64,000 nucleotides of DNA. It comes from an uncultured bacterium. GTDB lineage: Bacteria > Acidobacteriota > Aminicenantia > Aminicenantales > Saccharicenantaceae. Position numbers and translations under genes: made by a program. Position 1 is the stretch's first letter, and each line of letters starts with the position of its first letter. Where the stretch lies: the NCBI GenBank assembly GCA_963743755.1, contig CAVUQU010000002.1, positions 101,867 to 165,866 on the forward strand, written 5' to 3'. Below are positions 46,286-56,416 of this stretch, one piece after another. The notes below the pieces were generated by a model, which did no database searches, had not been told where the DNA came from, and worked only from the letters and a program-made list of their open reading frames with translations.

Positions 46286-47536
46286 TCACTTACCGAAGGT
46301 CCGGGCCGGCATGCCGGGCAACAGGAGGAAGATGTCCTTATAGAAATGCCGGACCTGATCGATCTTGCCGGGCGCATCGCCTTCGAGCTTGATGGGGAGA
46401 TGGGTCAACGCGATGTGCCCGGGCGCGAGGACCTCTTGGAGGAAGCGGGCGCAATTCGGCTCGAGCGGGAACCAATAGTGGACAATGGCCAGGTCGATAG
46501 GAGCGCCCCCCAGTCCGAACCCCTGGAAGACGTCGGGCTTGCCGTTGGTATCCCCTTCGTGCCAGATGTGCCGGCCGCCGAGCTCGAAGAGGAACATGAG
46601 GTTCATCGGGGTGTCCCTGTCGCCGCTGTGGAGGGTGCGGCACGCCGTGAGGGAGATCCCCTTCAGGTCTTGGGTCTCTTTCTCTCCGACCTTGAGGTCG
46701 ATTGCGACGACGCGGGGCCCGATTTTGGCCCAGTCCGCCGACGCCCGGCGCATGGCCTCGACGGCGTCCGCGGGGGCCAGGAGGAGGGGCTCGGAGTGGG
46801 TTTCCAGATAGCGAACAGCCAACCCGGCGTCGAAATGGTCGGGGTGATCGTGGGTGACAAGGACGAGGTCCACGCCGTCGAAAGGCGCGGCCCCCGTCAT
46901 GATCTTCTCGAGCGCCTCGGGCTCGGGGGCCCGGTATTCCGGATTCGGCTTGTCGAAGAGGGCGTCGATGAGGACTTTGGTGTCCCCGGAGCCGACCAAG
47001 ACGCCCATGTTGGCGACATAGGTGAGTTCGAGCGGCCTCTCCTTCGCGAAGGAGAAGTGCTGCTGGACCATCACCCAACGTCTGTCCCGTTTCTCCAGCA
47101 CGCCTGTCCAGCGGGCGTTCTCCCAGTTCGCCGGCCGTCCCTTCCACTCGTTGATGTCGTCGAGGATGGCGAAGAACCAGGCGACTTCGCCCGATCGCGC
47201 GAGCTTGATCCGGAGATCCCGAACCTCGAAGCGGACCGCCTTGAAATCGGGGCTCCGCCAGAGCGCCTCCGCTTTTTTAAACTCATCGATGCCCTTGACG
47301 ACGGTGCCGTCCGGATGGACCTCGAGAAAGTCCGGATCGTCCGCGATGACGCCGTAAAGAAGCCCGAAGTCCTTGTCTTTGGCCCAGCCGATCGCGTCCC
47401 GGATGGCCTGTTCGATGCGCGCCTTCTCGCTTTCCTCGGCCCGGCCGACGCGCGCCGACAAGCTCCCCGCGGCGAGCGCGGCGGCGATGACGACGAGCCC
47501 GGCGCCGGCCGCCGCCCATGCCAGCCGTTTTTTCAT
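46286..47536 (-). CDS. fusion protein: N-terminal SnoaL/NTF2-like domain + C-terminal MBL-fold metallo-hydrolase, secreted, intact
   Basis: Signal peptide MKKRLAWAAAGAGLVVIAAALA; NTF2-like ...DEFKKAEALWRSPDFKAVRFEVRDLRIKLARSGEVAWFFAILD...; MBL motif LVLVTHDHPDHFD ... H..D... RBS GAGG. Confidence 0.65.
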   Translation of the reverse strand: MKKRLAWAAAGAGLVVIAAALAAGSLSARVGRAEESEKARIEQAIRDAIGWAKDKDFGLLYGVIADDPDFLEVHPDGTVVKGIDEFKKAEALWRSPDFKAVRFEVRDLRIKLARSGEVAWFFAILDDINEWKGRPANWENARWTGVLEKRDRRWVMVQQHFSFAKERPLELTYVANMGVLVGSGDTKVLIDALFDKPNPEYRAPEPEALEKIMTGAAPFDGVDLVLVTHDHPDHFDAGLAVRYLETHSEPLLLAPADAVEAMRRASADWAKIGPRVVAIDLKVGEKETQDLKGISLTACRTLHSGDRDTPMNLMFLFELGGRHIWHEGDTNGKPDVFQGFGLGGAPIDLAIVHYWFPLEPNCARFLQEVLAPGHIALTHLPIKLEGDAPGKIDQVRHFYKDIFLLLPGMPARTFGK

Positions 47537-47546
47537 GTCCGCGACC

Positions 47547-49356
47547 TCACTTCTTCCCGGCCGTCCGGAGCTTCTCGACGATGTCGGCCCGGACCCAGTA
47601 GGCGTGGCTCTCGCCGCCGCGCTGGCTCAGGAAAAAGAGATATTTGCCGTCGGCGGTGACGATAGGGCACAGCTCGATCGACGGGCTGTTCACTTCGGGG
47701 CCCATATTCACGGGCGCGGTCCAGGCGCCGTCCGGGCCCCGGAAGCTCGCCCAGAGATCGTATTGGCGCGAGAACAGGAGGTAGCTCCCGTCCGGAGCGA
47801 CGAAGGGCGTATCCTCGATCTCGGGGGAGTTGATGGGTTCGCCCAGATTGACGGGCTTCCCGTACGCTCCGCCGGAGAGACGGGCCACGTAGATGTCGTT
47901 CAGGCCGCGGCTGTCCGGAGCTCGTCCGGCGACATAGAGGCTTGCCCTTCCGGTCGAGCGAGAACTCCCAGTGCATATTGACGGAGTTGACGTTGGGATC
48001 GAGGGGCCTGGGCTCGCCCCAGCCGGAAGGTGTCCTGTCCGTGTACCAGATCTTCTCGCTCCCTCTTGGCCGTTTCCCCGGGAAGCGGCCGGCGGGAGAT
48101 GAAATAGAGCCTTTTCCCGTCGGCCGAGAAGAAGGGTACGTCGTCCGGCCTGTCGGGCCCGAGAAGGGCGCCCAGGCCGGCGGCGTCCAGCGGCCGTTGA
48201 CGCGTTTCATCGTCAGCAGGCCGCCGCGCGAATAGATCTCGCCGGGGAACGTCATCATCGGCGCCCAATAGACCTCGTTCCCGTCCGGAGAGAAAACGGC
48301 CGTGCTGTGGAGGCCCCAGACCGAGGAGATGATGCCCGGGGCGAAGAGTTCGGGCGTGTCTCCGGGGGGCTTCTGTCCCAAGTACTCGCCCTCGAGGACC
48401 GGGAACCGAGTCTCCGAAAGGTCGGCGCCCTTTTTGGCCAGCAACCCCGCCACGGCGTCCATCTTCCGCTCAACGGCGACATTGTAAGCGGTCTGGCCCA
48501 TGAGGGTCCGGGTGTCCACGGGTGCGCCCCGTTCGATCAGGCCCCGGGCGACCTCGGTCCGGCCGTCCCGCGCGGCGTAATGGAGCGGGGTCCAGCCGAA
48601 GCGGTCGGCCTTGGACTGCGGGAAGCCCTTTTCGATCAGAAGTCCGACGATCTCGGCCGACCCTCCGGCCGCGGCGGAATGGAGGAGCCCTTCGCCGGCC
48701 GGGCCGAGGGCCGTGAGGTCCTGCCCTTTCTCGATCAGCCGGTGGAAGAGCCTCGTCAGGCCGTTGGCCGCGGCTTCGGAGAGAGCGTCTACCCATTTAT
48801 CACCGGACTCCGGTACGTTGGCCCCTTTCTCGAGGAGCAGATCGACGAAGTCGGCCTTGCCCCGCCAGGTTGCGAGCTCGAGGGCGGTGGAACCGAATTT
48901 GTCCTCGGCGTTGACGTCCGCCCCGGCTTCGATGAGGACGCGGCCGGTGGCGGCCTGGCCCCGCTCGCGGGCGCAGAGGATCAGGGCCGTCCGCTGGTAG
49001 TCGTCCCGCGGCTCGATAGCGGCGCCCCGCTCGAGGAGCGCGGCCACCGCGTCCCGGTGGTCGTTGATAGCCGCCAGGTGGAGCGGGGTCTTTCGTCCCG
49101 CGCCAGGGAGATCGAGCTTCGCGCCTTTGTCGATGAGGAACGAGACGAGGTCCGCGTCCCCGAGGGCAGCGGCGTAATGGAGCGGGGTGTCGTCGGCGCC
49201 ATCACGCTCCGAGACGAGCCGAGGCGATTTCTCGACCATCGCCTTGACGGCCGGGATATCGCCATTGCGGAGCAGATCGAAGACCTCCTGGGCCCGGGCA
49301 GGGATGGCCAACGTCGCCGTCAGCAGAAGAGAGAGGATCAAGGCCGGTTTCTTCAT
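47547..49356 (-). CDS. secreted ankyrin-repeat + PD40/TolB-like beta-propeller fusion protein (C-terminal half frameshifted)
   Basis: Signal peptide MKKPALILSLLLTATLAIPARA; at least 7 ANK repeats (...TPLHYAAALGDADLVSFLIDKGA..., ...TPLHLAAINDHRDAVAALLERGA..., ...WTPLHYAARDGRTEVARGLIERGA...); C-terminal PD40 repeats ...DTPFVAPDGSYLLFS...SPSIELCPIVTADGKYLFF... (47547..47888). Confidence 0.7.
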
Positions 49357-49572
49357 CGCGGTCTCCTCGGGTGGATCAGCGTAAAGTTAGTTCACAGCTT
49401 TACGGCCAGAGCGGCCCGGGGCGAAAAGTCCCCCCATGCGGCCCTGATCGTGGCTGTCACCCCATCATGACTAGCAAGCGCCGTGCCAGACGCCGTCGGG
49501 AATGAAGGGGTCGCCCTCCCGGTCGAAATATGATAAAATAGATAGGAATTAGGGAGTATGAGGAGTGATGCA

Positions 49573-50052
49573 ATGAATCGGACGATCCGGCTGCTCGCCG
49601 CCTGCGGTTTCATCTTCCTCGCGTTCGCGGCCCTGGCCGCGGCCCAGCCCGCCGGCTCCTGCTGCAATTCGCCGGGCGTCACCCCGAGCGGCAAACAGGG
49701 GGAGCCCGTCTTTCAGGACCTGGCCAAGTCCGGCAAGAAATGCTGGATCGGCGAGGTCAATTACTTCACCTGGGAATTCGACAAGACACCGAAGATGGGG
49801 ATGTCCGTCCTCATCGTCAAGCTCTACGACAAGGACGGCCGGCGCGTCTCCGACCTGACGATCACGGGACGCTGCGACATGCCGTCGATGCGCGGCGCCC
49901 ACGACACCGGCGAGGTCGCTTTCAAGACGAACAGGGCCGGCGATTACCTGCTGCCCGTCAACGTCGTCATGCCCGGCGACTGGGAGGTCCTGCTGACCTT
50001 CTCCCGCAACGGCATCGTCATCTTCCGGGGCCGCATCACGTTCGATGTCTGA
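49573..50052 (+). CDS. small secreted YtkA/FixH-like domain protein with CC and Met/His motifs (possible periplasmic Cu-binding protein)
   Basis: Signal peptide MNRTIRLLAACGFIFLAFAALAAA; ...GSCCNSPG...; ...CDMPSMRGAHDTGE... (Met/His cluster); ends ...GDWEVLLTFSRNGIVIFRGRITFDV, like the Ig-like YtkA fold. RBS AGGAG. Assignment is tentative. Confidence 0.4.
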   Translation: MNRTIRLLAACGFIFLAFAALAAAQPAGSCCNSPGVTPSGKQGEPVFQDLAKSGKKCWIGEVNYFTWEFDKTPKMGMSVLIVKLYDKDGRRVSDLTITGRCDMPSMRGAHDTGEVAFKTNRAGDYLLPVNVVMPGDWEVLLTFSRNGIVIFRGRITFDV

Positions 50053-51085
50053 GCCGCGCGATCCGGCGCCGAACCTTCCCGCGCGTGTCGCGTGTCGGGC
50101 CGGGACGAGAGCGCTCATCGCCGGGATCTTCCTCGTGGCGGGTCTCGCCCCCGGGCTCCTGCGGGCCCAGAGCACGCTCCTCTTCCTCGAGCTCCAGGCG
50201 GTCGGCGCGTATTCGACCGCCGCAAACGGCATCGAGCTCTTCTCGCTCATGCCCGACGACGCCATGCAGAAGCCCAGTCTCGGCTTCGACCTGGTGAAAA
50301 GGTTCTCGGGGAGGACCGGCGATATCGGCGTCCTGGCCGTCCAGGCCCGCCTGGCCTACGACCAGGAAGGCGATCATAAGCTCGAACCCCAGCTCTACAA
50401 CGCCTATTTCCGCCTCAAGACGAAAGTCGCCGGCATCTGGATCGGCCACAACCGGCCCGCCCTCGGCCTCTCTTCCGTCCTCGACGGCCACGCCCTCCTC
50501 CTGCCGGCGCCGGCCATGCTCGGGTACGGCTTCGACCGGGACTGGGGGGTCGGGCTGGAGCGGGATTTCGGTTGGGGGAGCGCCGCCGCCTCGTTGACGG
50601 CGGGCAGCGGCATGCCGCTCTATTTCAAGGGCAATTTCCTGGCCGCGGCACGGGTCTCCAAGGGCGTCCCGGCCCGCGACAATTACAGCGTCGGCCTGTC
50701 CCTGGCCCGCGGCGACGTCCTGGAGACCATGGGTTACACGCTCGTCGGGCCGGAGCCCATGGCTTGGACCGCCGCGGCGATCGACGCGACCTACTTCTGG
50801 CGGAACTTCGAGAACCGGGCCGAGATCCAGCTCGGCCGCCGCGACGGGGCCGCCGAGTTCCTCTTCTTCTGGCGGACGGGGCTGTCCCTGCTCGACGAGG
50901 GCCGGCTCAAGGTCGAAGCCCAGCCGGTCCTGACCCGGCGGGCCGGCGCCTGGGATTATTCCCTCGGCTCCGGACTGACCTATCTCGTCAGCGCGGACCT
51001 GGCCGCGAGGGGCGCCGTCCTCTACGACCATGCCCGGAGCGACGTCCGGTTCGTCGTGCAGCTGTATTTCTACAAGAGGTTGTGA
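50045..51085 (+). CDS. predicted outer-membrane beta-barrel protein, intact
   Basis: Signal-like N-terminus ...RALIAGIFLVAGLAPGLLRAQS; alternating hydrophobic beta-strand patterns throughout; C-terminus ...RFVVQLYFYKRL. The start overlaps the upstream stop by 8 nt. Confidence 0.4.
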   Translation: MSEPRDPAPNLPARVACRAGTRALIAGIFLVAGLAPGLLRAQSTLLFLELQAVGAYSTAANGIELFSLMPDDAMQKPSLGFDLVKRFSGRTGDIGVLAVQARLAYDQEGDHKLEPQLYNAYFRLKTKVAGIWIGHNRPALGLSSVLDGHALLLPAPAMLGYGFDRDWGVGLERDFGWGSAAASLTAGSGMPLYFKGNFLAAARVSKGVPARDNYSVGLSLARGDVLETMGYTLVGPEPMAWTAAAIDATYFWRNFENRAEIQLGRRDGAAEFLFFWRTGLSLLDEGRLKVEAQPVLTRRAGAWDYSLGSGLTYLVSADLAARGAVLYDHARSDVRFVVQLYFYKRL

Positions 51086-51122
51086 GGATCCGAAAAGTTC
51101 GGGAACGGCGACGGAGGTTCGT

Positions 51123-51777
51123 CATGAGAATGAAGAGAACGATCGTCCTCGCGGCGGCGGGGCTCGTCCTGGCCGCGGCCGCGTTCCTCCTTCACGCCGC
51201 CGTCGGCTGCGACCTCAACGATCCGGACCGGGACGTCAAGCGCCTCTTCCCGGGCTCGACCGGATTCAAGACGCTCTACGTCTCCATCTCTAAGAAAGGC
51301 GGCGACGAGCTCTTGAAGAGGATCGAGGCCCGCCTGGGCGACCGGTTCACCGGGCTCTTCGAGACGGCCGACGTGCCGTACACGATGTACGAGATCTACA
51401 AGGGCGAGGACCTCATCGGCTACATCCACGGCGTCAACCAGAAGGGGACGTACGGCGGCCTCCAGGTCTTCCTCGCCCTCGACACCGCCGGCGTCATCCG
51501 GGGCTTCTACTACCAGAAGCTGACCTCCAAGGCCGCGAAGGCCTTTCGCTCGCTCGCCTTCGGCGAGCAGTTCCGCGGCCTGAGCCTGGAGGATTTCTAC
51601 AGGTACGACGTCGTGTCGGGGCGGGAGGATCCCGCCGGCCCTGTCGGCCGCATCGCCAATCCCGACCCGGGGGCCGAGAAGGATTTCCGGGCCACCCTGC
51701 GGGCGGTCAAGAAGAACCTCGTCCTCGTCGACGAGTTCCTCCTCGGCAATCCCCACCTGAAATTCTTCAAAGGATAG
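51123..51777 (+). CDS. FMN-binding-domain (FMN_bind, NosR/NqrC/RnfG-like) periplasmic protein
   Basis: Signal/TM MRMKRTIVLAAAGLVLAAAAFLL; ...YTMYEIYKGEDLIGYIHGVNQKGTYGGLQVFLALDTAGVIRGFYYQK... This resembles the covalent-FMN attachment region (S/T-GTY..G) of FMN_bind domains. RBS GGAGG. Confidence 0.55.
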
Positions 51778-51783
51778 CTCCGC

Positions 51784-52981
51784 ATGAAAAAGATCTCCGT
51801 CTTCGCGGTGGCCTATAAGACCCTCCTGCGCAAGAGGACGAGAAGCCTGCTCACCGTCCTGGGCATCGCCATGGCGGCCTGGGTCCTGGTCAGCCTGTTC
51901 GGCTTCAACAAGGGCTACGAGACCTCCCTCAACCGGGACATCGACAACCTCGGCTTCCAGATGCTCGTCGTGGCCAAGGGCTGTCCCTACGAGGCGGCGA
52001 CGCTGATGCTCAAGGGCGGCACCGGCCTCAAATACATGGACGAGACGATCGCGGCATCGATCGCCGCCGAGCCCGAGGTCGACGGCGTGACGCCCATGCT
52101 CATGCAGGTCGTCTTCGACCCGAACAAGGGCGAGACCGGAGGCATGGCCGCGTTCCTCGGCGTCGACCCCGTCACGTTCCCCAAACTCAAGAGCGCCCTG
52201 CCGTTCAAGTCCGGCGGCTGGTTCGAGGCGCCCGAGGCGGCCGAGGCCGTCTTCGGCTACGAGGTGGCCGAGCTCGAACAGCGCGAGGTCGGCGACCTCT
52301 ACCTCATCCCCGAGAAAGAGGTCGAGGTCAAGGTCGTCGGGATCCTCGAACGGACGGGGACCCAGGACGACGGAACGATCTTCCTGCCCATCAGGACGGT
52401 CCAGAAGATCTTCGGTCTCCGCCAGCTGACCTCGATCGGCATCAAGGTCAAGAAGGACGCGGACCTCAAGGCCTTCGAGGACAAGATGTACAAGCTGCCC
52501 GACGTCCAGGTGGTCAGCCTGAGCCAGGTCAAGACGACCATCATGACCCTTGTTTCGACGGCCCGGGTCATGGTCTTCTCGATCGCTCTCATCGCCATCC
52601 TCATCGCCATGATGGGCGTCATCAACACGGTTCTGATGTCGGTCATGGAAAGGCGCCAGGAGATCGGCATCCTCAAGTCCATGGGGGCGATGGCCGGGGA
52701 CGTCTTCAAGCTGGTCTGGCTCGAGACGATCATCCTCTGCCTGTGCGGCGGCTTCCTCGGCACCGGCCTGGCCCTCGATAACGGCCCGGCTGACGGATAT
52801 CCTGGTCCGCCGGCTTCTGCCGTACTCGCCGAGCGGGGGCCTCGTCGCGATCGACCCCGGGCTGGTCCTGGCGACGCTCGGCGTGGTCACTGCGATCGGC
52901 CTGGCCAGCGGCATCTACCCGTCCTGGAAAGCGGCCCGGATGAGGCCGCTGGACACGATCCGCAGCGAGGAGCAGTCGTGA
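51784..52981 (+). CDS. MacB/FtsX-type ABC transporter permease with large periplasmic domain (frameshift about 52790)
   Basis: MKKISVFAVAYKTLLRKRTRSLLTVLGIAMAAWVLVSLFG (TM1); about 230-aa periplasmic domain; ...TARVMVFSIALIAILIAMMGVINTVLMSVMERRQEIGILKSMGA (FtsX TM2-3). C-term ...SGIYPSWKAARMRPLDTIRSEEQS* by own reading. Confidence 0.8.
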
Positions 52982-53673
52982 GCGCCCGGGCCGCCTTCTC
53001 GATCGAAGCCGAGCACCTCCGCCGGGTCTACCGCCGCGGCCAGGAGGAGATCGCCGCCGTCGACGACGTCTCCCTCCGGATCGAGCGAGGGTCGTTCCTC
53101 TCGGTCGTCGGACCGTCGGGGTCGGGGAAAACGACGCTCATCAACGTCCTCGGTTGTCTCGACAATCCGACCTCGGGGCGGCTCACGCTCGGAGGCCGCG
53201 TCGTCTTCGAGGATGGCAAGGGGCTTTCGGAGGCCAAGCTGACGCGCATCCGGCGGGACGTCTTCGGCTACATCTTCCAGAAATTCTACCTCATCTCCAC
53301 GCTGACCGTCCTCGAGAACGTCATCCTGCCCTTCACCTTCTTCAGGAAGCCGGGCGCCGAAGAGGACGTCGGGCGCGTCCTGAAACTCCTCGGCCTCGAC
53401 AAGCGCGCCGGCCATCTGCCCGGCCAGCTCTCGGGCGGGGAGATGCAGCGCGTGGCCATCGCCCGGGCCCTGGTCAACAAGCCCGAGATACTCCTGGCCG
53501 ACGAGCCGACGGGCAACCTCGACACGGCCCGGAGCGAGGAGATCGGGACGATCCTCAAGGACCTCAACGAACGGCAGGGCCTGACGGTCATCCTGGTCAC
53601 CCATAACCCCAGGCTGGCCGCTCTGGCCGGCCGGACGATCGAACTGCAGGACGGCAGGATCCGTTCAGCTTGA
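52978..53673 (+). CDS. ABC transporter ATP-binding protein (MacB/LolD-like), intact
   Basis: GTG start overlapping the permease stop; Walker A GPSGSGKTT; Q-loop; signature LSGGEMQRVAIARAL; Walker B ILLADEPTGNLD; H-loop VTHN. Confidence 0.9.
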   Translation: MSARAAFSIEAEHLRRVYRRGQEEIAAVDDVSLRIERGSFLSVVGPSGSGKTTLINVLGCLDNPTSGRLTLGGRVVFEDGKGLSEAKLTRIRRDVFGYIFQKFYLISTLTVLENVILPFTFFRKPGAEEDVGRVLKLLGLDKRAGHLPGQLSGGEMQRVAIARALVNKPEILLADEPTGNLDTARSEEIGTILKDLNERQGLTVILVTHNPRLAALAGRTIELQDGRIRSA

Positions 53674-53728
53674 CAGGGCCCCCGGGGAAATATACGATCG
53701 GGCCACTTTTGTAAAGAAGAGAGGGAAA

Positions 53729-55547
53729 ATGGTCACAACTCTGGCCGGACTCTTGGCCAACACCGTCGAGACTTATCCGAAACCCGATCTCATGCTCTTC
53801 AAGAAGGACGGGGCCTTTACGCCCATCTCCACCCGGGAGTTCGGGGAGAGCGTCAGGAACCTGGCGCTCGGGCTCAGGGCCCTGGGCTTCGAGGCGGGGC
53901 AGAAGCTCTGCCTCCTCTCGGAGAACAGGCCGGAGTGGAGCATGACCGACTTCGCGACGCTCACGGCCGGCGGACTGACCGTGCCGATCTACACGACCCT
54001 CGTCCCGGACCAGATCCGCTACATCATCGACGATTCGGACGCCGCGATCGTCGTCGTCTCCAACGCCGACCACTGGAAGAAGATCGAGATCCTGAGGCCC
54101 GGTTTGACCAAGGTCCGTCACTACATCACCTTCGCCGACGCGGCCCCGGCCGGCGCGCTGACGCTGAAGGAGGTCCTCGAAAAAGGGAAGGCCCTGGCCG
54201 CGGCCGAGCCCGGCCTCTACGGCGAGCTCGTAGCCCGGGTCAAGCCGGAGGACGAAGCGACCCTGATCTACACCTCGGGGACGACGGGCGTCCCCAAGGG
54301 CGTCATCCTGACGCACGACAACCTCGTCAGCAACATCCGGACGGCGGCTTCCCTCGTCGAGTTCACGGACAAGGACACCGCGCTGTCCTTCCTGCCGCTC
54401 TCCCACGTCCTCGAGCGGATGGTCATGTTCACCTACATCTACAAGGGCTGCACCGTCGCCTTCGCCGAGAGCGTCGAGGCGGTGGCCCAGAACCTGCTCG
54501 AGGTCCGGCCGCACATCATGGTCAGCGTCCCGCGGGTCTTCGAGAAGATCTACACCAAGGTCATGGACCAGGTCCTGACCAGCCCCGCGCTGCGGCGGAA
54601 GATCTTCTTCTGGGCCCTCAAGGTCGGCAAGGCGTACGGGGCCCTGAAGATCGACGGGAAGCCTGTCCCGGCCGGGCTGAGCCTGCGCCAGGCGATCGCC
54701 GCCAAGCTCGTCTTCTCGAAGATCACCGCCAAGACGGGCGGCCGGGTCCGCTTCTTCGTCTCGGGCGGGGCGCCGCTGTCGAAGGACATCGCCGAATTCT
54801 TCTACGCCATCGGCCTGGTCATCCTCGAAGGCTACGGCCTGACCGAAACCTCGCCGCTTCTCTCGATCAACACGTTCGAGGCCATCCGCATGGGCACGGT
54901 CGGCAAGCCCGGCACCGGCATCGACATCAAGATCGCGCCGGACGGCGAGATCCTGGCCCGCGGGCCCAACATCATGAAGGGCTACTACAAGAAGGAAGCG
55001 GAGACCCGCGAGGTCCTCGAAGGCGGCTGGTTCCACACCGGCGACATCGGCCAGTTCGACGCCGACGGTTTCCTGATCATCACCGACCGCAAGAAGGACC
55101 TCCTCGTCACCTCCGGCGGCAAGAACATCGCCCCCCAGCCCATCGAGAACATGGTCAAGTCGAGCCCCTACATCGTGAACGCCGTGGTCATCGGCGACCG
55201 CCGGCGCTTCGTCGCGGCCCTCGTCGTGCCCGAGCTTCGAGAAGCTCGAGGCCTACGCCAAGGCCCAGGGCATCGCCTTCGCGACCGTCGAGGATCTGTG
55301 CCGGGACCGCCGCATCGTCGACTTCCTCAAGTCGGAGGTCGACCGGGCGACGCCGCTCCTCGCCTCCTACGAGAGGATCAAGAAGATCGCCGTCCTGCCG
55401 CGCGATTTCGACATCGAGCGGGGCGAGATCACGCCGTCCCTCAAGGTCCGCCGGGCCAACGTCACGGCCGAGTACCAGAACGCGATCGACGCGCTGTACC
55501 GGGAGGACGCGGAGGAGGGGCGGGACGACGGGGCGATCGGCGGCTGA
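53729..55547 (+). CDS. long-chain-fatty-acid--CoA ligase (AMP-dependent synthetase, FadD/ACSL type), frameshift about 55240
   Basis: AMP-binding motif LIYTSGTTGVPKGVILTH; ...GYGLTETS...; GWFHTGDIG; ...LKVRR.. tail EKLEAYAKAQGIAFATVEDLCRDRRIVDFLKSEVDRAT... in the second frame. Confidence 0.85.
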
Positions 55548-55561
55548 CGCGGCCGCGGGGC

Positions 55562-56305
55562 CTATTCGGCGGCCGCGGGCCCGGGCTTGACCGGCTCGGG
55601 CTTGACCGTCAGGTAGAGGATGCGGCCGCAGTTCTCGCAGAGGACGACCTTGGCCTTGTCGCGGATCTCGTTGAGCATCTGCGGGCGGACGCGCATGTGG
55701 CACATGGCGCAGAATTCCCCGGTGACGGGGGAGAGGGCGGCGCCGCCCTTCTTCTGGGACAGGGACTCGTAGATCTTGAGCTGTTCGCGGGGGATGCAGG
55801 GGACGAGGGCCTCCCGCTCCTTGTTCAGGACCGCGAAGCGGGATCCGGTCTCCTTCAGCTTCTCGTCGAGGACGAGCTTTTCCTTCTCGAGGACGTCCTT
55901 CTCCTGGCTCTGCTTGTGGAGGGCGGCCTTGATCTCCTCCTCGACGTCGTCGGCGGCCAGCATCTCGGCGATGATGGACTCCTCGATGCCGTCGATCTTG
56001 CGCTGGGTCTCTTCGAGCTCGTGGAGGAGCGAGGTGTATTCCTTGTTGGTCTTGACCTCGTTCAGCTGGCGCTTGTATTTCCCGACCTGGACCTTCATGT
56101 CCTTGACCTCGTTCTCGAGGTCGCGGCGCTTCTTCTGGTTCTGGGCCATCTTGTCCTTGGCGTCGGCGACGAGCTTCGTCGTGGCCTGGATGCGCTTGTC
56201 GACGTCCTGGACGAGGCGGGGGATGCCTTCGATGACGAGGGCGGCGTTCCGGATGTCGGAATCCAGCTGCTGGAGCTGGATGATCAGTTCGAAATCGATT
56301 TCCAC
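55562..56305 (-). CDS. coiled-coil + C-terminal C4 zinc-ribbon protein (DUF164 / COG1579-like), intact
   Basis: Long heptad-rich region (...LENEVKDMKVQVGKYKRQLNEVKTNKEYTSLLHELEETQRKIDGIEE...) then CAMCHMRVRP...LCENCGRILY. Confidence 0.6.
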   Translation of the reverse strand: MEIDFELIIQLQQLDSDIRNAALVIEGIPRLVQDVDKRIQATTKLVADAKDKMAQNQKKRRDLENEVKDMKVQVGKYKRQLNEVKTNKEYTSLLHELEETQRKIDGIEESIIAEMLAADDVEEEIKAALHKQSQEKDVLEKEKLVLDEKLKETGSRFAVLNKEREALVPCIPREQLKIYESLSQKKGGAALSPVTGEFCAMCHMRVRPQMLNEIRDKAKVVLCENCGRILYLTVKPEPVKPGPAAAE

Positions 56306-56334: not shown

Positions 56335-56406
56335 ATGGGCCTACCAGGATTCGAACCTGGGACCAACCGGTTATGAGCCGGTGGCTCTACCGCTGAGCTA
56401 TAGGCC
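56335..56406 (-). tRNA. tRNA-Met (anticodon CAT), elongator-like; tRNA-Ile2(LAU) cannot be excluded
   Basis: Minus-strand read GGGCCTATAGCTCAGCGGTAGAGCCACCGGCTCATAACCGGTTGGTCCCAGGTTCGAATCCTGGTAGGCCCA. It has a 7-bp acceptor stem GGGCCTA/TAGGCCC, D-arm GCTC/GAGC, anticodon stem ACCGG/CCGGT with loop CTCATAA, and T-arm CCAGG-TTCGAAT-CCTGG. CCA is not encoded. G1-C71 pairs, so it is not the bacterial initiator type. Confidence 0.85.
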
Positions 56407-56416
56407 CTCGGCCCCT

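Follow-up and report, generated by a model that had tools for sequence, protein, structure and literature searches.

A conserved five-gene porin and MacB-type transporter module in Candidatus Aminicenantes as a candidate adaptor-less copper defence system

Results

We analysed a window of 64,000 nucleotides (contig CAVUQU010000002.1, positions 101,867 to 165,866 of the forward strand; positions below are those of the window unless a locus is named), which has a G+C content of 61-74% and comes from a carrier genome that, judged from its closest relatives, belongs to Candidatus Aminicenantes (Acidobacteriota). The subject of this work is a module of five co-directional plus-strand genes at 49573-53673, here called g1 to g5. 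They encode a secreted YtkA-domain protein of 159 aa that is a putative periplasmic Cu(I) chaperone (g1, 49573-50052), a predicted outer-membrane porin-like beta-barrel of 16 strands and 346 aa as called (g2, 50045-51085), an exported or anchored protein of 217 aa from a small uncharacterised family (g3, 51124-51777), a MacB-type permease among the ATP-binding cassette (ABC) transporters of type VII, with about 399 aa after frame correction (g4, 51784-52981), and an ABC ATPase of the LolD/MacB/FtsE type with 231 aa (g5, 52978-53673). The tight coupling of the five genes, proposed in an initial annotation of this DNA, was borne out by our reading of the open reading frames (ORFs): g1 and g2 overlap by 8 nucleotides, gaps of 38 and 6 nucleotides separate g2 from g3 and g3 from g4, and the GTG start of g5 overlaps the stop of g4 in a 4-nucleotide GTGA. 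A ribosome-binding site (GAGGAG) is located 7 nucleotides ahead of the ATG of g1. Since a separate promoter-like site (TTGACA-17-TACGAT, 53670-53698) follows right after the g5 stop, ahead of an acyl-CoA synthetase gene, the unit ends at 53673. For comparison, related loci were gathered (labels of the type L001; P-numbers denote g3-family proteins), and the nearest one, L003, is a Microflora Danica metagenome-assembled genome with 95.5% nucleotide identity across the cluster.

The first protein, g1, matches the Pfam family YtkA (PF13115) with 34.4 bits against a cut-off of 25.9 (residues 70-139), and its match to Pfam FixH is below the FixH cut-off, which agrees with the small secreted YtkA/FixH-like protein noted initially. 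The YtkA family is also assigned by precomputed annotation to the g1 orthologues in L001 and L002. Two motifs are conserved in g1, DMPSMRGAH and VVMPGDWEV (family form VVMPGxWEV). The pattern MP.M.G.H is found in 70 of 72 orthologues and the other two have MPSMGSAH, so that MPSMxGxH, like VVMPGxWEV, can be counted as 72/72, with a one-residue variant in these two. Accordingly, the Met/His part of the metal motif first pointed out in this protein is kept throughout the family, and only close relatives share its CC pair and the Cys of RCDMP. The closest PDB entry, and the only one that g1 comes near to by sequence, is 9ll2, a 'Copper resistance protein' of Helicobacter pylori; the pairwise match is weak (E 0.74), but 9ll2 itself clearly has a YtkA domain (68.5 bits), shows 95% identity with a protein of H. 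pylori and is most probably CrdA. The 9ll2 loop MMPEMPGMPAM aligns with DMPSMRGAHD of g1, so that g1 carries a putative Met/His copper-ligand motif in the same loop as a copper-linked YtkA member. Other characterised YtkA domains, CtaK and the C-terminal domain of YcnJ, act in copper trafficking (PMC13344008), and CrdA is a secreted protein needed for copper resistance whose gene accompanies those of CrdB, an outer-membrane protein, and of the pump CzcBA (PMC12319023). These features make g1 a candidate carrier of periplasmic Cu(I). In one Desulfobacteraceae locus (L061, 5890-6381), a small exported His/Asp/Arg-rich protein containing GYPGYHHSDSYDRHGDRDDQSSRGHDRNR is encoded directly upstream of g1 and may be another metal-binding accessory.

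No Pfam or NCBIfam match was obtained for g2. Its AlphaFold2 model (predicted local distance difference test, pLDDT, 68.5) is a barrel of about 16 antiparallel strands, and when the model was compared with the PDB by Foldseek, OmpU, OmpF and Omp32 came out on top (E 5e-10, template modelling score, TM, about 0.55) among 164 matches at E <= 1e-3. The outer-membrane beta-barrel suggested earlier is thus supported by a porin-type model. An N-terminal hydrophobic signal can be seen in g2 and in its orthologues, and the true start is probably later than called, with the mature protein beginning near STLLFLELQAVGAYS. The gene is always immediately upstream of g3. In the sister module described below, the g2 homologue (26-28% identity) is recognised by Pfam as Porin_4 (41.3 bits, cut-off 27) and Porin_O_P (25.6 bits, cut-off 20.9).

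The third protein had been regarded as a periplasmic FMN_bind flavoprotein depending on ApbE for flavinylation, and neither part of this assignment was retained. No Pfam or NCBIfam match was found for g3, with no FMN_bind at E <= 0.1; FMN_bind (PF04205) was detected in 0 of 33 diverse relatives at E <= 1, and a sequence search of the PDB gave nothing significant. The family is small, with 278 representatives at E <= 1e-3 among 1.84 billion. The AlphaFold2 model of g3 (pLDDT 65) matched RnfG (7zc6_G, E 4e-3, TM 0.43-0.49) and then NqrC as its best PDB structures, and these matches are weak overall (E 4e-3 to 0.1, TM 0.3-0.49). A profile of the g3 family likewise reached RnfG and NqrC in the PDB below threshold (E 0.4-0.8), through the corresponding central sheet (GY..v...G..G.i.v.v.....G.I). 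The ApbE flavinylation motif D..[ST][GS]A[ST] is present in 0 of 269 g3-family proteins, and the residue at the flavin-equivalent position, candidate Thr191 at a helix start, is A in 54, T in 48, I in 35 and V in 11 of them. In the flanks of the loci examined, no apbE, membrane electron-transfer or other redox gene recurs near the module. Because there is no FMN_bind match, the fold match to RnfG and NqrC is weak and the flavinylation motif is absent from the family, g3 would be at most a distant, flavin-less relative of the FMN_bind fold.

What characterises the g3 family is an invariant cysteine, Cys29 in AAVGC-x-L-x-x-P-D, which is positioned just past the N-terminal hydrophobic helix at the start of the mature protein. 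Its motif GC.L..P is kept in 82/82 loci of the window's own type (type A) and in 57/57 loci of the sister type (type B). The lipobox rule is satisfied in the window but in only 62 of 120 close homologues, and many relatives have AxA-type signal-peptidase sites ahead of the Cys or a non-lipobox residue at -1. Apart from the module, distant g3-like domains were seen fused to DUF3179 in marine metagenome contigs (L083-L096; P0271, P0280, P0283, P0284 and P0302), and these fused proteins carry an extra C-x4-5-C pair; the DUF3179 family includes CxxC/UxxC selenoprotein members. The L083-L096 loci are mostly without porin and ABC genes, and in several of them the opposite strand carries an ORF with weak DUF4920 likeness. 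In P0251 and P0260, the g3 domain is duplicated in tandem.

The assignment of g4 and g5 as a MacB/FtsX-fold permease with its ATPase was confirmed, in the form of split genes. Pfam places MacB_PCD (68.8 bits, residues 21-235) and FtsX (70.5 bits, residues 266-388) in g4, both above cut-off, with a periplasmic domain of about 220 aa, and the closest PDB entry is MacB (5gko, E 3e-21). For g5, Pfam ABC_tran was matched with 108 bits, and the motifs GPSGSGKT, LSGGEMQR and LLADEP are visible in its sequence. Its best NCBIfam models are the MacB N-terminal domain, LolD and DarD, also the FtsE group, all below their equivalog cut-offs, and g5 is directly behind g4 in nearly all of the approximately 115 loci that carry both. 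The pair therefore combines the FtsX four-helix permease and the cognate LolD/MacB/FtsE ATPase that define the MacB/FtsX type VII ABC superfamily. Membership in the LolCDE, FtsEX or MacB equivalog families was rejected on NCBIfam scores (MacB 79 vs 966 bits, lolCE 75 vs 362, FtsX 37-40 vs 225-255). Motifs specific to this family are located in the periplasmic domain of g4: AKGCPYEAATLMLKGGTG, FDPNKGE and RTGTQDDGTIF are invariant in 72/72 type A orthologues, KGCPYEAATLMLKGG is likewise invariant in the family, and KGCPYEA, with its invariant Cys, is present in 72/72 type A and 35/35 type B proteins. The initial annotation had also stressed that no membrane-fusion adaptor accompanies this pump, and our searches agree. 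Among the five proteins, Pfam detected no HlyD or other membrane-fusion adaptor and no TolC-type (OEP) factor, the annotation of the syntenic loci L001 and L002 shows no such gene up to 10 kb on either side, and none recurs in the flanks of other lineages.

In the window, g4 and g5 are read as one fused ORF of 629 aa, in which the shifted permease frame runs into the ATPase frame by chance. The shift was traced to a 1-nucleotide insertion near 52778, where the window has CTCGATAACGG and five relatives without the insertion (L003, L005, L018, L002 and L012) have CTCG-TCACGG or similar; in the Illumina-assembled relative L002, g4 is intact with 398 aa. Neighbouring genes in the window also change frame, and an assembly error, from a long-read assembly with indels, is therefore the likeliest cause, with a true pseudogene as the less likely alternative. 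For example, an ankyrin/TolB-like gene (47533-49356, minus strand) continues as an ORF at 47547-47888, and the acyl-CoA synthetase gene (53729-55600, plus strand) loses its frame after about 480 aa. Similar frame breaks were observed in L003 and L001 from the same project.

Conservation of the neighbourhood, on which the initial annotation had staked its proposal, was found across phyla. A scan of one genome per species, using a g3 alignment as query, showed that 419 genomes encode a g3 relative. When the gene order of the best 80 loci was surveyed by profile searches with the five window proteins, the order g1-g2-g3-g4-g5 was observed in almost every locus of sufficient length, and about 80 species-level genomes from at least seven phyla have the module in colinear form. 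Carriers include Aminicenantes, Desulfobacterales (among them three Ca. Electronema genomes) and other Thermodesulfobacteriota, NC10, Krumholzibacteriota, Cloacimonadota, Chitinivibrionia and others. Metagenome-assembled genomes of two cultured species, Desulfatirhabdium butyrativorans and Desulfonema limicola, hold part of the locus. The order is g2-g3-g4-g5-g1 in Krumholzibacteriota and g4-g5-g1-g2-g3 in Cloacimonadota, so that the genes are permuted only as the blocks g2-g3, g4-g5 and g1. Since g2-g3 and g4-g5 are kept as pairs and only the small protein moves, the arrangement suggests one pair for the outer membrane, one for the inner membrane and a shuttle. The flanking genes are unrelated between lineages, and a search of the type A neighbours for recurring additions such as apbE, regulators or cuproenzymes revealed only lineage-specific synteny.

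A metagenome scan seeded with distant g3 relatives uncovered a sister form of the module in 57 loci, referred to as type B (L097-L160; for example L118 6625-10840, L100 6628-10794 and L110 6284-10840). Its order is porin, g3-like protein, a protein of about 125 aa, g4-like and g5-like proteins and sometimes a second ATPase, and identities to the window proteins, besides that given above for g2, are 44-54% for g3, 49-51% for g4 and 53% for g5. The small protein replaces the YtkA protein; it is DUF4920-like (E 8.6e-5, just below cut-off), usually has C-x2-G-C-W and is often a lipoprotein. Particularly, a Trns_repr_metal gene (90 bits) is encoded directly upstream on the same strand in 16 of the 35 type B loci with enough upstream sequence to be evaluated, and 19 such matches were found overall. 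All 17 aligned full-length repressors keep Tyr-Cys...His-x3-Cys, the CsoR fingerprint, and they also have a conserved N-terminal His; their best NCBIfam model is the copper sensor RicR, with 75.6 bits vs 29-33 for RcnR and FrmR. The promoter of the csoR-like gene consists of TTGACA, then ATAGGGTAGGGGGGTATGG or ATACCCCCTGGGGGTATAG, then TATAAT, so that a box ATACCCC-N-GGGGGTAT is placed between -35 and -10, and the exact pattern of this box occurs in 13 loci. We take this GC-rich dyad to be the known type of CsoR operator. As an excess of Cu(I) makes CsoR let go of DNA, the CsoR-type repressor with its operator leads us to read the sister module, from its sequence, as a probable response to copper excess. 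In 10 type B loci a YHS-domain gene (36 bits) adjoins the module. The metal link made in the initial annotation is strengthened by this CsoR- and YHS-linked sister module as well as by the copper-resistance YtkA structure of H. pylori.

Some further features of the type B loci were recorded. The genes may run from the csoR-like gene, sometimes through the YHS gene, to the module. Just downstream of the ATPase, an AhpC/TSA-redoxin-type lipoprotein with weak SCO1/SenC similarity or an Rrf2-family regulator was seen (L118 11142-11627, L106 11492-11914), and neither of these recurs widely.

Ahead of g1, the extended -10-like element TGATAAAAT (TGaTAAAAT) reported initially is present at 49531-49539 on the plus strand. 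L018 and L030 have it too, and they are the only loci with which the segment 49519-49564 is conserved. A strict sigma-70 scan called no site at the 49531-49550 element. The adjoining ATAGGAATT (49542-49550, plus strand) is the right half of a palindrome known from other Aminicenantes, in which a perfect (AAT)TCCTAT-ATAATNC-ATAGGA(ATT) is placed over the -10 just before g1 in about 25 loci (L003 6335, L005 6365, L009 6293, L002 8410 and about 20 more). This palindrome looks like a repressor operator and may be regarded as a candidate for one. The window has no match to the full TCCTAT-N7-ATAGGA even with 3 mismatches and keeps only the right arm; together with L018 and L030, it shares a different promoter variant. 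The inverted repeat formerly placed at 49383-49407 is actually at 49380-49404. It occurs in 0 of 162 related loci, and a 7-bp repeat within 216 bp is near chance expectation, so it was rejected as a regulatory element. A search of the upstream region against Rfam gave no family and no riboswitch.

Discussion

Our leading reading, put forward tentatively, is that the module forms an envelope machine for periplasmic Cu(I), and possibly also Ag(I), which uses ATP to remove the metal and provides anaerobes with a copper defence that needs no adaptor. Oxygen-dependent detoxification of the CueO type is unworkable in anaerobes. In such a machine, secreted g1 would capture Cu(I) through its conserved Met-Met-His motif, a task that the DUF4920-like protein would take over in the sister module. 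A homodimeric MacB-type motor of g4 and g5 would then hydrolyse ATP and move the periplasmic domain with the invariant Cys; by family precedent it would carry no substrate across the inner membrane and would instead drive the transfer. The g3 protein, with its invariant N-terminal Cys and its gene directly after that of the porin in every case, would serve as partner or adaptor where other pumps have a MacA-type fusion protein, and the porin g2 would provide the exit across the outer membrane. We infer copper as the substrate, the outward direction, the roles of the cysteines and the outer-membrane sub-complex of g2 and g3. The initial annotation had imagined a redox-coupled machine for export or insertion of a metal or cofactor. 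With no FMN_bind membership, no flavinylation motif and no recurring apbE or redox gene nearby, redox coupling has lost its footing, and CsoR control of the sister module points to defence against copper excess rather than to cofactor insertion.

A bolder form of the copper defence is a trans-envelope metal relay with neither a fusion protein nor a TolC duct. Here the motor would mechanically load Cu(I), through its invariant periplasmic Cys, onto an exchangeable soluble chaperone of the YtkA or DUF4920 type. The chaperone would pass the metal ion to the g3-capped porin in a Lol-like hand-over, and many anaerobic phyla, to which oxygen-dependent oxidases are of no use, would have in this system their chief defence against periplasmic copper. 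We consider this extended version unlikely.

Several points weigh against a copper defence. The type A module itself appears from its sequence to have no link to a copper regulator: neither a csoR gene nor a CsoR box was found in the window or any of the 82 loci of type A. The characterised YtkA protein CtaK delivers copper to an oxidase rather than removing it, which makes the outward direction tentative. We know of no coupling of a MacB-type motor to a passive 16-strand porin without an adaptor that spans the periplasm, and the role given to g3 is a guess. CsoR-family proteins can also sense Ni/Co, persulfide or formaldehyde; the fingerprint and the operator of the sister module are of the copper type. 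Furthermore, the models of g2 and g3 are of moderate confidence only (pLDDT 65-69), and if the insertion in g4 is real, the copy in the window may be non-functional.

A different explanation, improbable in our view but with evidence on its side, turns the flow around. In copper acquisition or cofactor delivery, the porin would admit scarce copper from sulfidic surroundings, g1 would capture it as CtaK or PCuAC does, and the motor with g3 would help to load periplasmic or membrane cuproenzymes such as NosZ or haem-copper oxidases. Uptake routes typically involve porins, the P19/FTR1 iron-uptake clusters come with FtsX-type ABC systems, the type A loci have no CsoR, and the idea is close to that of the initial annotation. 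CtaK and the YtkA domain of YcnJ, moreover, support CuA-site assembly and copper supply (PMC13344008). However, the homologous sister module is placed behind a CsoR-type repressor with a canonical operator and would be switched on at copper excess, genes for cuproenzymes, CopD/FTR1-type importers or Sco do not recur beside the module, and the nearest YtkA protein of known structure is one of copper resistance. The same machine might also have a different substrate, either a soft metal or metalloid other than copper, such as Ag(I), Hg(II), Cd(II), Zn(II) or Ni(II), or a metal-sulfide or thiolate species of anoxic sediments, and we judge this quite doubtful, more so than uptake. The carriers are sediment anaerobes, and by established chemistry Ag(I), Hg(II) and Cd(II) are further ligands of Met/His and Cys motifs. 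The CsoR family includes the Ni sensors InrS and RcnR, and the sister repressors have their conserved N-terminal His, but the operator and the Y-C/H/C fingerprint are those of copper-sensing CsoR, and the score with RicR is far higher than with RcnR or FrmR. PA4063-66 and Zrg, two comparable systems, act on Zn or Co (PMC11481552). YHS and YtkA, on the other side, are copper-associated domains.

Two explanations dispense with metal transport or add electrons to it. Most characterised members of the MacB family handle non-metal cargo, and by analogy with Lol, FtsEX and DevBCA, the module might export or extract a lipid, lipoprotein, peptide or envelope precursor, with g1 as a structural immunoglobulin-like partner and g2 and g3 as the outer-membrane acceptor. 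Such a role would fit the best scores of g4 and g5, which are against MacB, LolCE and LolD models, the agreement of g3 in the window with a lipobox rule, and the invariant pairing of g2 and g3, which recalls barrel-lipoprotein complexes. We nevertheless find it distinctly unlikely. The MacB, LolCE and LolD scores in NCBIfam are far below the cut-offs, the residues conserved (Met, His and Cys) are of kinds that serve as metal ligands, two unrelated proteins with metal motifs can take the position of the small partner, and it is not obvious how the linkage to CsoR and YHS would fit in. The notion of a redox-coupled machine, in which an ApbE-flavinylated FMN_bind g3 would pass electrons to a metal or cofactor, is highly improbable and is largely refuted by sequence: FMN_bind was missing from g3 and from all of its relatives searched, the flavinylation motif was not found once in the family, the candidate Thr191 position holds A, T, I or V, and genes for ApbE or for membrane electron transfer do not recur around the module. 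In its favour are RnfG and NqrC as the best PDB matches of the g3 model, the sub-threshold profile matches in the same region and the fusion of some distant g3 relatives to DUF3179, a family with CxxC/UxxC members. The use of FMN_bind or thioredoxin proteins by P19 clusters (PMC8238504) also speaks for it.

Among known systems, the module resembles MacAB-TolC and the type VII superfamily in the MacB_PCD and FtsX four-helix domains of g4, for which MacB is the best solved relative, and in the LolD/MacB-type ATPase g5, and mechanotransmission is expected for this pair from its family. In contrast to MacAB-TolC, g4 and g5 are separate genes, there is neither a MacA/HlyD adaptor nor a TolC-type duct, the partners are a 16-strand porin, g3 with its RnfG-like fold and a YtkA protein, and g4 has the invariant KGCPYEAATLMLKGG. 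In the copper efflux systems CrdAB-CzcBA of H. pylori and CusCFBA of Escherichia coli, too, a pump of the inner membrane and an outer-membrane protein are encoded along with a small secreted copper protein that has a Met motif, and 9ll2, most probably CrdA, shares the YtkA domain with g1. Their pump, however, is of the resistance-nodulation-division type with a fusion protein, whereas the module has a MacB-type ABC pump, a porin-like g2 in place of a TolC/CusC-type factor, and g3, which is without a counterpart in them. With CsoR-regulated operons of the copZA type, the sister module has in common the CsoR-fingerprint repressor and the ATACCCC-N-GGGGGTAT operator between -35 and -10. It differs in that the regulated genes are a porin and a MacB-type set instead of a P-type ATPase, and the window module has no csoR gene or box.

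Adaptor-less relatives of the pump are found in other metal systems. The P19/FTR1 iron-uptake clusters include FtsX-type ABC components, and like the module they join such a pump to a metal-binding beta-sandwich protein of the periplasm and to a small accessory protein outside the cytosol. The module has no FTR1 permease and no P19, its g3 is without the flavinylation motif and FMN_bind signature, and its sister form appears to be copper-regulated. In some lineages, the accessory protein of P19 clusters is an extracytosolic FMN_bind or thioredoxin protein (PMC8238504). PA4063-PA4066 of Pseudomonas aeruginosa and ZrgABCDE of Vibrio cholerae have a split MacB-type pump and periplasmic metal-binding proteins without an adaptor, and their direction of transport is debated (PMC11481552). 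Likened by descriptions only, they share with the module the split adaptor-less ABC pump, the small periplasmic metal proteins and a metal-sensing repressor; they differ in their unrelated partners, the lack of a porin, Zn/Co as metals and control by Zur. RnfG and NqrC, the best structural matches of g3, have an N-terminal hydrophobic anchor or signal as g3 does. Unlike them, g3 is without the S/T-G-A-T flavin site and the Rnf/Nqr partner genes, and its N-terminal Cys motif is absent from RnfG and NqrC.

In the literature searched, no description of the five-part combination, of the family-specific motifs or of the CsoR-linked sister form was found, in line with the earlier view that the combination is undescribed, and nothing was found on DUF4920, on the PDB codes or on a resembling CsoR-linked FtsX system. 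Of its components, only g3 and the DUF4920-like protein fall outside known superfamilies. MacB-type transporters are known mainly through MacAB-TolC, LolCDE and FtsEX. For the workings of metal-linked adaptor-less members such as Zrg/PA4063-66 and the P19-associated pumps, the module offers a clean case, with five fixed parts, sharp invariant motifs, two interchangeable chaperone types and one form under textbook CsoR control. If the copper defence is true, it would explain how periplasmic Cu(I) is cleared in diderm anaerobes from little-studied phyla (Aminicenantes, Desulfobacterota including cable bacteria, NC10, Krumholzibacteriota and Cloacimonadota), and two protein families that are so far uncharacterised, that of g3 and that of the DUF4920-like proteins, would gain a function.

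Neighbouring features

Downstream of the module, the synteny of the AMP-binding, CT398, rpoD and dnaG genes is kept in Aminicenantes. In the window, a tRNA-Met (CAT) gene is encoded on the minus strand at 56336-56407, between the CT398-like zinc-ribbon gene and rpoD.

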